DNA from: Escherichia coli
GTDB taxonomy: Bacteria > Pseudomonadota > Gammaproteobacteria > Enterobacterales > Enterobacteriaceae
Assembly: GCF_041248615.1 (NCBI RefSeq)
Contig: NZ_CP158426.1
Strand: one strand, 5' to 3'
DNA length: 64,000 nucleotides
The notes below the pieces were generated by a model. It had not been told where the DNA came from. It searched no databases and saw only the letters and a list, made by a program, of their open reading frames with translations. Positions 42,589 to 46,254 of the stretch are shown piece after piece. The number at the start of each line of letters is the position of its first letter. Position 1 is the first letter of the stretch. Position numbers and translations under genes: made by a program.

Positions 42589-42951
42589 ATGGCTAGCGAA
42601 CGCAGTACTGATGTGCAGGCATTTATCGGGGAGCTGGACGGCGGCGTATTTGAAACCAAAATCGGCGCAGTTCTCAGTGAAGTCGCTTCCGGTGTTATGA
42701 ACACGAAAACCAAAGGTAAGGTCTCACTCAACCTGGAAATCGAACCATTTGATGAGAACCGTGTGAAAATCAAACACAAACTCTCATATGTTCGCCCGAC
42801 TAACCGCGGGAAAATTTCCGAAGAAGACACCACCGAAACGCCGATGTATGTCAATCGCGGTGGTCGCCTGACTATTCTGCAGGAAGACCAGGGACAGTTA
42901 CTGACTCTTGCCGGTGAACCTGACGGAAAACTCCGCGCAGCAGGTCGTTAA
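42589..42951 (+). CDS. YfdP-like prophage protein
   Basis: 120 aa from MASERSTDVQAFIGELDGGVF with AGGAG SD; precedes yfdQ/R/S-like genes as in K-12 CPS-53. Confidence 0.55.
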   Translation: MASERSTDVQAFIGELDGGVFETKIGAVLSEVASGVMNTKTKGKVSLNLEIEPFDENRVKIKHKLSYVRPTNRGKISEEDTTETPMYVNRGGRLTILQEDQGQLLTLAGEPDGKLRAAGR

Positions 42952-43044
42952 TATCGTTTTTAATTAACTGATTATTTATCTCATCACTGGGTGATGCTGC
43001 CAACTTACTGATTTAGTGTATGATGGTGTTTTTGAGGTGCTCCA

Positions 43045-43320
43045 GTGGCTTCTGTTTCTATCAGCTGTCCCTCCTGTTCAGCTACTGACGGGGTGGTGCG
43101 TAACGGCAAAAGCACCGCCGGACATCAGCGCTATCTCTGCTCTCACTGCCGTAAAACATGGCAACTGCAGTTCACTTACACCGCTTCTCAACCCGGTACG
43201 CACCAGAAAATCATTGATATGGCCATGAATGGCGTTGGATGCCGGGCAACCGCCCGCATTATGGGCGTTGGCCTCAACACGATTTTCCGCCATTTAAAAA
43301 ACTCAGGCCGCAGTCGGTAA
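43045..43320 (+). CDS. insA: IS1 InsA
   Basis: 91 aa, matches IS1 InsA. Confidence 0.95.
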
Positions 43321-43742
43321 CCTCGCGCATACAGCCGGGCAGTGACGTCATCGTCTGCGCGGAAATGGACGAACAGTGGGGATACGTCGGGGCTAAATCG
43401 CGCCAGCGCTGGCTGTTTTACGCGTATGACAGGCTCCGGAAGACGGTTGTTGCGCACGTATTCGGTGAACGCACTATGGCGACGCTGGGGCGTCTTATGA
43501 GCCTGCTGTCACCCTTTGACGTGGTGATATGGATGACGGATGGCTGGCCGCTGTATGAATCCCGCCTGAAGGGAAAGCTGCACGTAATCAGCAAGCGATA
43601 TACGCAGCGAATTGAGCGGCATAACCTGAATCTGAGGCAGCACCTGGCACGGCTGGGACGGAAGTCGCTGTCGTTCTCAAAATCGGTGGAGCTGCATGAC
43701 AAAGTCATCGGGCATTATCTGAACATAAAACACTATCAATAA
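43239..43742 (+). CDS. insB: IS1 InsB (made as InsAB by frameshift)
   Basis: 167-aa ORF matches IS1 InsB. Confidence 0.95.
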
Positions 43743-43792
43743 GTTGGAGTCATTACCCATCACTGAATATCTTTATATAGTGAGGACTTATT

Positions 43793-44617
43793 ATGTCTCA
43801 GAACTTAGACGCAACCGCAATTAATCAAATCCATGCCCTTATTTCTGCTCAGGGTGTTAATGAAATTATCAGTAAGATTGGTGCCGATGCTGTGGCATTG
43901 CCTGAGAATTTCCGCATTCATGATCTGGAAAAATTTAATTTAAATCGCTTCCGTTTCCGTGGTGCGCTTTCCACTGCCAGCATCGATGACTTTACCCGTT
44001 ATTCTAAAGATCTTGCAGATGAAGGCACCCGCTGCTTTATCGATGCTGATAATATGCGTGCCGTCAGTGTGCTTAACCTGGGTACTATTGATGAACCAGG
44101 TCACGCAGATAACACCGCCACACTCAAACTGAAAAAGACAGCACCGTTCTCTGCTCTGTTGTCTGTTAACGGCGAGCGTAACTCCCAGAAGTCACTGGCA
44201 GAATGGATTGAAGACTGGGCCGACTATCTTGTGGGCTTTGATGCTAATGGTGACGCTATTCAGGCAACAAAAGCGGCTGCGGCTGTCCGTAAAATCACGA
44301 TTGAAGCAAACCAGACCGCTGATTTTGAAGATAATGACTTCAGCGGCAAACGCTCCCTGATGGAGTCTGTCGAAGCGAAAACCAAAGACATTATGCCAGT
44401 GGCATTTGAATTTAAATGCGTTCCGTTTGAAGGCCTGAAAGAACGTCCGTTTAAATTACGCCTCAGCATTATCACTGGCGATCGTCCTGTACTGGTTCTG
44501 CGCATTATTCAGCTGGAAGCGGTGCAGGAAGAAATGGCTAACGAATTTCGTGATCTGCTTGTTGAGAAATTCAAAGACAGCAAAGTAGAAACCTTCATTG
44601 GTACTTTCAGCGCCTGA
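43793..44617 (+). CDS. YfdQ-like protein (DUF2303)
   Basis: 274 aa, recognised as a homolog of K-12 CPS-53 YfdQ. Confidence 0.65.
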
Positions 44618-44744
44618 TTTCATTACTGCAAATGCCCCTGCGGGGGCATTTATGGAAACATAATCGACTCAATAATCGCCGGATGGTGAGGGCTTCCTTT
44701 TACCAGAATTCAGCGTGGTGCAGCACATATACGTGGAGAACAAA

Positions 44745-45281
44745 ATGTCATTTATTAAAACTTTTTCTGGGAAGCATTTTTATTATGACAAGATAAATAA
44801 AGACGACATCGTGATTAACGATATCGCGGTTTCCCTTTCAAATATCTGTCGCTTTGCAGGACATCTTTCACACTTCTACAGCGTCGCCCAACATGCGGTG
44901 CTTTGCAGCCAACTGGTACCGCAGGAATTTGCTTTTGAAGCGTTAATGCATGATGCAACAGAAGCGTATTGTCAGGACATCCCCGCTCCACTGAAACGCC
45001 TTCTTCCTGACTATAAACGGATGGAAGAAAAAATAGACGCCGTAATCCGTGAGAAATACGGGTTACCCCCGGTTATGAGCACGCCTGTGAAATATGCCGA
45101 TCTCATCATGCTGGCAACTGAACGCCGCGAACTCGGGCTTGATGATGGCTCTTTCTGGCCAGTACTGGAAGGTATCCCGGCAACAGAGATGTTCAAAGTT
45201 ATTCCACTGGCTCCGGGTCATGCCTACGGGATGTTTATGGAACGTTTTAACGAGTTATCGGAGTTACGCAAATGCGCATGA
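44745..45281 (+). CDS. YfdR-like HD-domain phosphohydrolase (5-prime-deoxynucleotidase family)
   Basis: 178 aa from MSFIKTFSGK; HD motif (SVAQHAV ... ALMHDATEAY); GGAGA SD. Confidence 0.7.
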   Translation: MSFIKTFSGKHFYYDKINKDDIVINDIAVSLSNICRFAGHLSHFYSVAQHAVLCSQLVPQEFAFEALMHDATEAYCQDIPAPLKRLLPDYKRMEEKIDAVIREKYGLPPVMSTPVKYADLIMLATERRELGLDDGSFWPVLEGIPATEMFKVIPLAPGHAYGMFMERFNELSELRKCA

Positions 45282-45634
45282 ATGTTTTCGAAATGGAAGG
45301 GTTTCTTCACGGGAGATGTGTACCACGAGACCTGAAAGTGAATGAAACGGATGCTGAATACCTGGTGCGTAAATTCGATGCGCTTGAAGCTAAATGTGCA
45401 GCACAGGAAAACAAAGTAATACCAGTATCAGTTGAACTGCCACCAGCAAATGAAAGTGTTCTGTTATTTGATGCTAACGGAGAAGGCTGGCTGATTGGCT
45501 GGCGTTCTCTCTGGTACACCTGGGGACAAAAAGAAACCGGAGAATGGCTGTGGACATTTCAGATCGGGGACCTTGAAAATATTAATATCACTCACTGGGC
45601 AGTAATGCCAAAAGCACCGGAGGCTGGAGCATAA
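45272..45634 (+). CDS. YfdS-like hypothetical protein
   Basis: 120-aa ORF overlapping the end of the yfdR-like gene, as in the yfdQRST arrangement. Confidence 0.5.
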   Translation: MRMNVFEMEGFLHGRCVPRDLKVNETDAEYLVRKFDALEAKCAAQENKVIPVSVELPPANESVLLFDANGEGWLIGWRSLWYTWGQKETGEWLWTFQIGDLENINITHWAVMPKAPEAGA

Positions 45635-46254
45635 TGACCACTTACACCGATAAGGAACAGATTAAAGAAATCAAAGAACGAATCGGCAGCCTAGACGTGC
45701 GAGACAATGTTGAGCGCCTTGCTTATGAAATTGCTCTGGCATCACTGGAAGCAGAGCCGGTGGCGTGGCTTCATTCAGACAATGGCTTAGGTATTCCGGC
45801 AATAACCAGGAGCAAAAACATTGCTGACAGTTGGTTATCAAAGGGCTGGTATATTCAGCCGCTATATATGGCTCAGCCAGTGTCGGTGGTGCCGGATGCT
45901 CTTCCGTCTTTAAATAATGGCATAGTCGGCTTTGATGAAGGCTGGAACGCCTGCCGCGCCGCCATGCTTCATGGTGCCAAACCTGTAAGCCAGACTTACA
46001 AGTTGAACGAGCTGTCGGGCAACTCTCCGGTAACTCCGGATGGTTGGATAAGCTGTAGTGAGCGAATGCCGAACGATAAACAGTATGTTTGGTGTTGGGG
46101 GAAGTCTTACGGCTGGACTGAGTGCGATACCTTCGAAGGGTATTACGATTGGTCGAGAAACAAATGGTGGGCAGTTACTGACGATGTGGAAGAACCGGCA
46201 TCGAAAGTAACCCACTGGATGCCGCTACCGGAGCCGCCGCAGGAGGTAAAGTAA
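45634..46254 (+). CDS. DUF551-domain protein
   Basis: C-terminal DGWISCSERMPNDKQYVWCWGKSYGWTECDTFEGYYDWSRNKWW...VTHWMPLPEPP matches the DUF551 signature. Confidence 0.55.
   Translation: MTTYTDKEQIKEIKERIGSLDVRDNVERLAYEIALASLEAEPVAWLHSDNGLGIPAITRSKNIADSWLSKGWYIQPLYMAQPVSVVPDALPSLNNGIVGFDEGWNACRAAMLHGAKPVSQTYKLNELSGNSPVTPDGWISCSERMPNDKQYVWCWGKSYGWTECDTFEGYYDWSRNKWWAVTDDVEEPASKVTHWMPLPEPPQEVK

Follow-up and report, generated by a model that had tools for sequence, protein, structure and literature searches.

Gene content of the block

The 64,000-nucleotide stretch of Escherichia coli DNA analysed here (the window) is 100% identical to NZ_LT599825.1 from E. coli NRZ14408. Between positions 42589 and 46254 it carries an ordinary, well-known prophage gene set, yfdP-yfdQ-yfdR-yfdS, followed by a fifth gene and interrupted between its first and second members by a strain-specific IS1 element. 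The limits drawn for the block in an earlier note, made from the letters alone, are exact, 42589 being the first base of the yfdP start codon and 46254 the end of the fifth gene's stop codon. The contents, in order, are as follows (percentages are protein identities to the K-12 orthologues):

42589-42951, + strand: yfdP orthologue, 120 aa; 98.3% over 120/120 aa; phrog_204; no Pfam family
42982-42989, no strand: left copy of the target duplication, CATCACTG, 8 bp
42990-43757, + strand: IS1 (IS1B-type), 768 bp, intact, in the same orientation as the yfd genes
43758-43765, no strand: right copy of the target duplication, CATCACTG, 8 bp
43793-44617, + strand: yfdQ orthologue, 274 aa; 98.9% over 274/274 aa; DUF2303
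44745-45281, + strand: yfdR orthologue, 178 aa; 98.3% over 178/178 aa; HD-domain 5'-deoxynucleotidase
45272-45634, + strand: yfdS orthologue, 120 aa; 92.5% over 120/120 aa; phrog_583 (E 9e-81)
45634-46254, + strand: fifth gene, 206 aa; YfdT-like N-terminus (residues 1-42) plus DUF551 domain (residues 137-203)

RefSeq names these yfdP, IS1B-family transposase, yfdQ, yfdR, hypothetical protein and DUF551 protein.

The likeness to the yfdP-yfdQ-yfdR-yfdS region of K-12 CPS-53 (KplE1) that had been proposed was borne out by BLASTP alignment to the K-12 proteins: identities ranged from 92.5 to 98.9% for YfdP, YfdQ, YfdR and YfdS, each alignment spanning the whole of both proteins, and the low similarity that the earlier note had named as evidence against the resemblance did not appear. 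At the DNA level, identity to K-12 is 97.9% for window positions 42570-42989 and 95.6% for 43758-45758. Order, strand and tight spacing, including the yfdP-yfdQ spacer, are common to both, save for a 776-bp insertion (IS1 plus one copy of the duplication); K-12 has no IS1 there. Reading frames overlap or abut from yfdR through the excisionase gene, xis: yfdS overlaps yfdR by 10 nt, as it does in K-12, and the start of the fifth gene overlaps the yfdS stop in an ATGA that is likewise present at the K-12 junction.

The label 'yfdPQRST-like' used in the earlier note thus fits yfdP, yfdQ, yfdR and yfdS, all of which are orthologues, but not the fifth gene, whose product aligns with YfdT (76% identity) only across residues 1-42, the remainder being unrelated. 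Judged on its sequence, this gene is not yfdT but a mosaic in which the N-terminus of YfdT is joined to a DUF551 domain. Whereas K-12 has a 101-residue YfdT followed by ypdJ and torI, here the 206-residue protein is followed by a different excisionase.

The assignment of YfdR as an HD-domain protein, also made previously, agrees with retention of the H...HD...D metal-binding motif, residues H50, H69-D70 and D78 aligning with those of the HD protein Atu1052 (PDB code 2gz4; E 1e-13). The three substitutions with respect to K-12 YfdR (D128E, N150K and D169E) all lie outside this motif. The protein matches phrog_318 'dNMP phosphatase' with an E-value of 2e-109, but lies below the curated cut-offs of the Pfam YfbR-like family (24.4 bits against 25.9) and of NCBIfam PRK03826 (19.9 against 122); on these profile scores it is a distant YfbR relative, named by way of its K-12 orthologue. 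YfdQ matches PF10065 (DUF2303) across profile positions 2-269 of 269, scoring 309.7 bits where the cut-off is 26.6 (E 2e-92), and a sequence search found a relative of solved structure (PDB code 9o7m, 'YfdQ Protein', 36 chains; E 3e-44); structural neighbours sought for its predicted model were uninformative. The DUF551 match of YfdS falls slightly under the Pfam cut-off. Searches for relatives of solved structure found none for YfdP or the fifth protein, and Rfam identified no RNA family within the cluster.

The IS1 insertion

That IS1 parts yfdP from yfdQ, as the earlier note had it, follows both from its coordinates (42990-43757) and from comparison with the empty site, TTATCTCATCACTGAATATC, which contains a single copy of CATCACTG in GPEC1035 and in K-12. 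The element begins GGTGATGCTGCCAACTTACTGAT and ends AATAAGTTGGAGTCATTACC, its imperfect terminal inverted repeats of around 23 bp being GGTGATGCTGCCAACTTACTGAT and GGTAATGACTCCAACTTATTGAT. The insA gene occupies 43045-43320 and the insB' frame 43239-43742, with the A6C frameshift site TTAAAAAAC at 43294, where RefSeq annotates a programmed frameshift. The insertion lies 38 bp past the yfdP stop and 35 bp ahead of the yfdQ start, in a native spacer of 65 bp that is AT-rich (26% G+C). Its length of 768 bp, terminal inverted repeats, insA/insB' arrangement with A6C site, short target duplication and AT-rich target, of the kind that IS1 prefers, are all those of classical IS1. The duplication is of 8 bp and not the more usual 9, a length that IS1 sometimes produces; otherwise nothing about the element is unusual.

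Prophage setting and candidate promoter

The features surrounding the cluster are the following:

39929-40615: immunity repressor gene
41537-41552 and 41581-41596: operator-like repeats
41552-41580, + strand: candidate pL-like promoter, TTGACA-17-TAAATT
41713-41988, + strand: first early-left ORF, 91 aa, phrog_3195
42264-42574, + strand: ORF termed 'frameshifted hypothetical protein' by RefSeq, directly upstream of yfdP
46254-46436, + strand: excisionase gene (xis), phrog_1553, truncated
46413-47727, + strand: IS1414 (IS256 family), 1315 bp, with an 8-bp duplication, GGGCATCA
50145-51362: int

The cluster is therefore placed as an early-left set of lambdoid type would be, between the immunity repressor and xis/int and on the strand read from a predicted repressor-controlled promoter. 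Among promoter-like sites in 41400-46600 the candidate promoter ranks first, agreeing with the consensus at 10 of 12 positions, and it is the sole strong one upstream of the cluster; neither the spacer between yfdP and yfdQ nor the right-hand IS1 junction gave a promoter-like site in the same scan. A 12-mer, ACATAAAGTTGT, recurs exactly, and a 16-mer with 14 of 16 matches, in the intergenic region between repressor and cro (39840-39900). We infer from the consensus match and these shared repeats that 41552-41580 is a pL-like promoter. The ORF at 42264-42574 bears the same frameshift flag in every other inspected genome that annotates it.

Phage cdtI (NC_009514, orf39-orf32) offers a close comparison, sharing the order yfdP, yfdQ, yfdR, yfdS, DUF551 gene, xis, CHAT gene and int; across the DNA that runs from yfdQ through the fifth gene, orf35 there, it is 99.2% identical to the window. 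It differs in having neither IS1 nor IS1414, an intact xis and a different repressor region. RefSeq annotates no cdt genes in the part of the prophage covered by the window. In the window, codons 1-53 of xis are native and the last 11 have been replaced by seven derived from IS1414, the intact 64-residue form being present in GPEC1035. A second copy of IS1414 lies in a tail gene. With three IS insertions (the IS1, IS1414 in xis and IS1414 in the tail gene) the prophage is decaying and probably defective. A blastn-short search of the window's first 9 kb for an attL repeat of the int-yjjG junction sequence yielded only chance-level matches.

The module is common: of 5,426 complete E. coli genomes 3,024, over half, carry it, as do 374 phage records, among them Stx-converting and Shigella Sf phages. 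A review of lambdoid early-left operons likewise describes yfdP, yfdQ and yfbR-like genes as frequent there (PMC12315714). The idea that they form a hidden recombination module was rejected, the module genes co-occurring with complete Rec modules (PMC12315714).

CPS-53, by comparison, is without the upstream immunity region (window 38388-42569), and K-12 yfdP abuts a fragment of an O-like replication gene. The control by SrsR (YgfI) described for K-12 yfdP was considered for the present copy and discarded, the corresponding boxes, at 38277-38302, falling within the O-like replication gene rather than upstream of yfdP. Since the K-12 copy has lost its native upstream region, features of K-12 regulation such as these boxes are not transferable to this prophage. 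The importance of the locus is small, given that its genes, published phenotype and IS1 were all known already and that the module is so widespread. What this prophage and phage cdtI do retain is the native early-left operon around the module; with 4.2 kb upstream lost from K-12, these phages are better suited than CPS-53 to the study of how YfdQRS is naturally regulated and what it does.

The replication phenotype

The earlier note referred to a K-12 report of replication-initiation inhibition on overexpression, with YfdR binding DnaA; this matches the work of Noguchi and Katayama in 2016 (PMC4776307). The active set comprises yfdQ and yfdR together with one of yfdS and yfdT, yfdP being dispensable; both the growth of dnaA mutants and initiation are inhibited when yfdQRS or yfdQRT is supplied in additional copies; and purified YfdR binds DnaA directly, in a manner dependent on Phe46, and is inhibitory in vitro (PMC4776307). 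Here yfdQ, yfdR and yfdS are all full-length ORFs, so that the minimal active set is present intact.

Extrapolating from the K-12 work, YfdR, aided by YfdQ and YfdS, would bind domain I of DnaA and damp initiation at oriC when expressed; it may also be a weak dNMP phosphatase. Lambda P and Bacillus subtilis SirA follow the same proposed logic, in which initiation is reduced by a small DnaA-binding protein, and SirA involves DnaA residue Phe49, the equivalent of Phe46 (discussion in PMC4776307). YfdR, which is not known to be related to either in sequence, departs from both in being an HD-domain hydrolase and in needing YfdQ plus YfdS or YfdT in vivo.

Replication inhibition need not be the native function. 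The phenotype was obtained from multicopy plasmids carrying K-12 alleles, deletion of the genes gave no replication phenotype, and the authors accept that what they saw on overexpression could be artefactual (PMC4776307). DnaA binding could then be a side effect of overexpression, the module acting instead on nucleotide pools through YfdR as a dNMP phosphatase, or serving as an anti-defence or lysis-lysogeny accessory set. This accords with the prediction that YfdR is an HD phosphohydrolase, with the occurrence of DUF551 domains in Ea22-type proteins that bias towards lysogeny (PMC10834534) and with the presence of the genes in phages that have recombination modules as well as in phages that lack them (PMC12315714). 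However, none of the five proteins has a PADLOC defence match or matches a known anti-defence family, and the direct, Phe46-dependent binding of purified YfdR to DnaA and the inhibition in vitro were both demonstrated. We regard such a native role as unlikely, while giving it more weight than the alternatives considered below.

Probable consequences of the insertion

The reading that we favour with good confidence is that a cdtI-like lambdoid prophage beside yjjG carries the module as accessory genes of its early-left operon, that the module is orthologous to the CPS-53 remnant, and that IS1 most likely lowers expression of the operon, with an effect on the host that is neutral or slightly favourable. 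The genes would be transcribed from the operator-flanked promoter at around 41552-41580 and, if so, no expression would be expected in the lysogen, with the genes coming on early after induction. The K-12 literature handles yfdPQ as one operon (PMC9181523), and the present strain constitutes a natural insertion allele that can be used for testing operon structure. By analogy with the classical polarity of IS1 insertions, as in gal and lac, the most likely effect of the element is polar: it would cut the operon and lower expression of yfdQ, yfdR, yfdS, the DUF551 gene and xis. It is in all likelihood not a new regulatory device.

Were it such a device, IS1 might uncouple yfdQ, yfdR and yfdS from prophage repression through transcription into yfdQ that starts at either its left-end promoter or a hybrid one at its right junction, giving low constitutive expression in the lysogen that could modulate DnaA-dependent initiation. 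The geometry is compatible: the element is co-oriented with the genes and ends 35 bp before the yfdQ start codon, the GAGGA ribosome-binding site is intact, an insA promoter-like site at 42997-43024 faces yfdQ, and a TTACCC arises at the junction, 17 nt upstream of TATAGT. Yet TTACCC matches the -35 hexamer at only three of six positions, the scan recorded no promoter-like site at this junction, and an mRNA initiated there would start downstream of the ribosome-binding site. The IS1 promoter itself is weak and InsA-repressed, and the element contains internal terminators. We consider uncoupling improbable. Its more ambitious form, that a DnaA-binding module freed from the repressor and expressed at a low constitutive level subtly shifts initiation timing, or tolerance of hydroxyurea or oxidative stress, in this clinical strain, is more improbable still; if true, it would represent IS-driven domestication of a phage host-takeover function.

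It might alternatively be supposed that the module is harmful when expressed and that silencing insertions have been selected, leading to recurrent IS elements in and around it. The inhibition produced by extra copies of yfdQRS or yfdQRT is in keeping with this, as are independent insertions of IS1 in yfdQ (CP097198), IS1 in yfdR (LS992166) and IS600 in yfdQ (CP037945). Against these must be set around 2,400 genomes that keep yfdQRS uninterrupted, and the sample of IS1-bearing examples is biased, the query itself having contained IS1. With some 8-12 IS1 copies per genome and approximately 4,000 module copies of about 3 kb each, we estimate that tens of random insertions are expected; the AT-rich spacer is the type of target that IS1 prefers in any case, and the operon should be repressed in the lysogen anyway. 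Selection is thus hardly a probable explanation, and a polar insertion that is neutral or mildly beneficial remains the preferred one. The notion that the insertion is shared with other strains or marks a hot spot was also rejected, the exact junction occurring in one of 5,426 complete E. coli genomes; in other strains IS1 lies elsewhere in or near the module, namely inside yfdQ or yfdR or at flanking sites.

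Gene content of the cluster

The roughly 5 kb around the cluster are 100% identical to the chromosome of E. coli NRZ14408 (NZ_LT599825.1), whose RefSeq annotation was carried over by subtracting 4,579,545 from each record position. The annotated genes, concordant in order with the ORF list of the window, all lie on the + strand:

yfdP
IS1B-family transposase (programmed frameshift)
yfdQ
yfdR (5'-deoxynucleotidase)
hypothetical protein (yfdS)
DUF551 protein
IS1414 transposase

An earlier note had likened this block to yfdPQRST of the K-12 cryptic prophage CPS-53, with limits (42589 and 46254) that coincide exactly with the yfdP start and the fifth-gene stop. 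BLASTP against K-12 MG1655 bore out the likeness for YfdP, YfdQ, YfdR and YfdS, with full-length identities of 98.3%, 98.9%, 98.3% and 92.5%, respectively. The T assignment did not stand: the fifth protein (206 amino acids) resembles K-12 YfdT at residues 1-42 only (76% identity), diverges thereafter and has a DUF551 domain at its C-terminal end (62.5 bits). Given this restricted likeness and the DUF551 end, the cluster is best described as yfdPQRS plus a mosaic fifth gene. The observation is confirmed and its interpretation supported, with these corrections.

From yfdR to xis each reading frame overlaps or adjoins the next (10 nt, ATGA, ATGA), the arrangement to be expected of a single operon; yfdPQ is given as one operon in K-12 (PMC9181523). 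The ORF directly 5' of yfdP (42264-42574, +) is flagged as frameshifted here and in every other inspected genome with annotation, and the yfdP frame is open 5'-ward to 42271. Possible explanations are a conserved pseudogene, a programmed frameshift or an artefact of the annotation.

Prophage setting

The module is housed in a lambdoid prophage, integrated next to yjjG, with lambda-like head, tail, lysis and Q-type antiterminator genes. Its neighbours are as follows:

39929-40615, +, XRE/S24 repressor
40598-41518, -, BRCT-domain gene, after the repressor
195-bp divergent region, after the BRCT-domain gene
two small ORFs, between the divergent region and yfdP
excisionase gene (xis), after the DUF551 gene
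46413-47727, +, IS1414, between the excisionase and CHAT-domain genes
47879-50068, -, CHAT-domain gene
integrase, -, after the CHAT-domain gene

The top promoter-like site of 41400-46600, TTGACA-17-TAAATT at 41552-41580, has on either side a repeat also present in the repressor/cro intergenic region: the 12-mer ACATAAAGTTGT stands unchanged at both 39888 and 41541, and a 16-mer is shared between 39861 and 41581. We infer that site and repeats probably constitute an OL/pL-type control region.

The gene of the BRCT protein (306 amino acids; C-terminal BRCT domain, phrog_3989) separates the candidate pL from the repressor gene, with which it is convergent and whose 3' end it overlaps by 18 bp. 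The protein gave a weak partial match to the PADLOC candidate PDC-S48 (E 2.7e-7). The related prophages inspected lack the gene and have other genes or none in its place; it may have a role in exclusion or defence, at a rex-like position. The CHAT-domain protein, encoded between xis and int, matches PADLOC BovA over its full length (E 2.4e-241), a model that we take to represent the single-gene Borvo anti-phage system; orf33 of the related phage cdtI is the same gene. It looks like a prophage-borne, int-proximal defence gene. Window positions 1-1700 belong to a transposable prophage of the Mu type, with gp16-family and Mor genes here and Gam, ExeA and a DDE transposase upstream of them in the record; the lambdoid prophage has its tail-fibre end only a few kb away. 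A search of the window's initial 9 kb for an attL repeat of the lambdoid prophage gave none.

K-12 CPS-53 as a derived form

Positions 8385-9587 of the K-12 segment (yfdN, yfdO and the yfdO/yfdP spacer) correspond to 37185-38387 here, and the base that follows in K-12 corresponds to 42570, the K-12 junction being at segment position 9586/9587. Since bases adjacent in K-12 thus lie at 38387 and 42570, CPS-53 is without an equivalent of 38388-42569, 4.2 kb that contain the remaining part of the O-like replication gene, genes resembling cII and cro, the repressor gene and, on the early-left side, the candidate pL with the first ORFs. Judged by sequence, K-12 is the derived form, and its 'yfdO/yfdP spacer' is the interior of the O-like gene. 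SrsR boxes are reported upstream of K-12 yfdP (PMC9181523). Here the box sequence TCAGATTTTGA, at 38277-38302, is part of the O-like gene and does not directly precede yfdP, for which reason SrsR control of yfdP in this prophage was rejected; the boxes may be origin iterons. Regulation known from K-12 should not be transferred to the present prophage.

IS insertions and their likely effect

IS1 had correctly been placed between yfdP and yfdQ. Comparison with the uninterrupted site TTATCTCATCACTGAATATC of E. coli GPEC1035 and K-12 defines it as 42990-43757 (768 bp), flanked at both ends by the 8-bp target duplication CATCACTG. It is separated by 38 bp from the preceding yfdP stop and by 35 bp from the yfdQ ATG that follows, sparing the GAGGA ribosome-binding site of yfdQ, in a native spacer of 26% G+C. 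Its insA, insB' and frameshift site TTAAAAAAC are intact, and the transposase is co-directional with the yfd genes. A 90-bp left-junction probe found a full-length, high-identity match in one of 5,426 complete E. coli genomes, NRZ14408 alone; the insertion is therefore strain-specific. Among other strains, CP097198 has IS1 in the 3' end of yfdQ and LS992166 has it in yfdR, CP151000 and CP116067 carry it downstream of the DUF551 gene, CP088131 and CP182282 upstream of the module, and CP037945 has IS600 in yfdQ; the query itself contained IS1, so these examples are no proof of enrichment.

IS1 splits the spacer of tightly packed, co-directional genes, and a replacement promoter is not evident: the scan of 41400-46600 gave none in the yfdP-yfdQ spacer and none at the right IS1 junction. 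The evidence does not favour activation of the downstream genes by read-out from IS1. IS1 insertions in operons are classically polar; by that precedent, transcripts from the upstream promoter would largely end within the element, and induction would then yield less expression of yfdQ, yfdR, yfdS, the DUF551 gene and xis. Without induction the lysogen should keep the operon repressed anyway, so a phenotype of the insertion is unlikely there. Selection of the insertion for silencing of the module is likewise not favoured, and the simplest reading is ordinary IS-mediated prophage decay.

The IS1414 copy at 46413-47727 replaces the last 11 xis codons (target duplication GGGCATCA). A second, identical copy of 1315 bp lies inverted relative to it in the same prophage, within a long tail-protein gene (7425-8739, -; target duplication ACAAACAA). 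Each copy has its own 8-bp duplication, and therefore no inversion has occurred between them.

Function of the yfd proteins

The earlier note's statement, that the K-12 cluster inhibits replication initiation on overexpression and that YfdR binds DnaA, was accurate. Noguchi and Katayama (2016) recovered the cluster by its suppression of hda-185 in multicopy; with extra copies, initiation was inhibited in the wild type and in several mutants, and purified YfdR bound DnaA in a Phe46-dependent manner and competed moderately with DiaA and DnaB (PMC4776307). Deletion of the cluster gave no replication phenotype, and the authors themselves regard an overexpression artefact as possible (PMC4776307). 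The published required set (yfdQ, yfdR, yfdS) is intact here, and a native role of the module other than replication control is not favoured by the evidence. Genes, insertion sequence and published phenotype have all been described before, with no departure from known biology.

YfdR, named via its K-12 orthologue and matching PHROG 318, has three substitutions relative to K-12, all outside the H...HD...D motif. It scores just under what Pfam and NCBIfam require of YfbR-type enzymes, and so is only distantly related to YfbR. YfdQ (43793-44617) matches PDB entry 9o7m, 'YfdQ Protein' (E 3e-44), whose 36 chains of one sequence hint at a large homo-oligomer; a literature search for a paper on 9o7m found none.

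Distribution and phage relatives

DNA of yfdQRS is present in 3,024 of the 5,426 complete E. coli genomes (at least 80% coverage in 2,406 of these), with a single copy in NRZ14408. The module also occurs in 374 phage records. The top match, cdtI, is 99.2% identical across the entire yfdQ-to-fifth-gene stretch and has its genes arranged as here (yfdP, Q, R, S, DUF551 gene, xis, CHAT gene, int), but is without IS elements, whereas IS1 and IS1414 are present here. Other carriers are phage Ayreon, Shigella SfIV and Stx-converting phages. According to a 2025 survey of lambdoid phages, yfdP, yfdQ and yfbR-like genes are common in early-left operons, yfdP and yfdQ lack a known function, and a hidden role as recombination genes is unlikely for them (PMC12315714).

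Rfam matches outside the cluster are all ordinary: a thermoregulator leader of the cspA type, upstream of cspB of the prophage (32516-32955, -), and, at 54448-54641 (-) and 54781-55100 (+), two naRNA4 repeats and three tRNA-Leu genes of the host flank.
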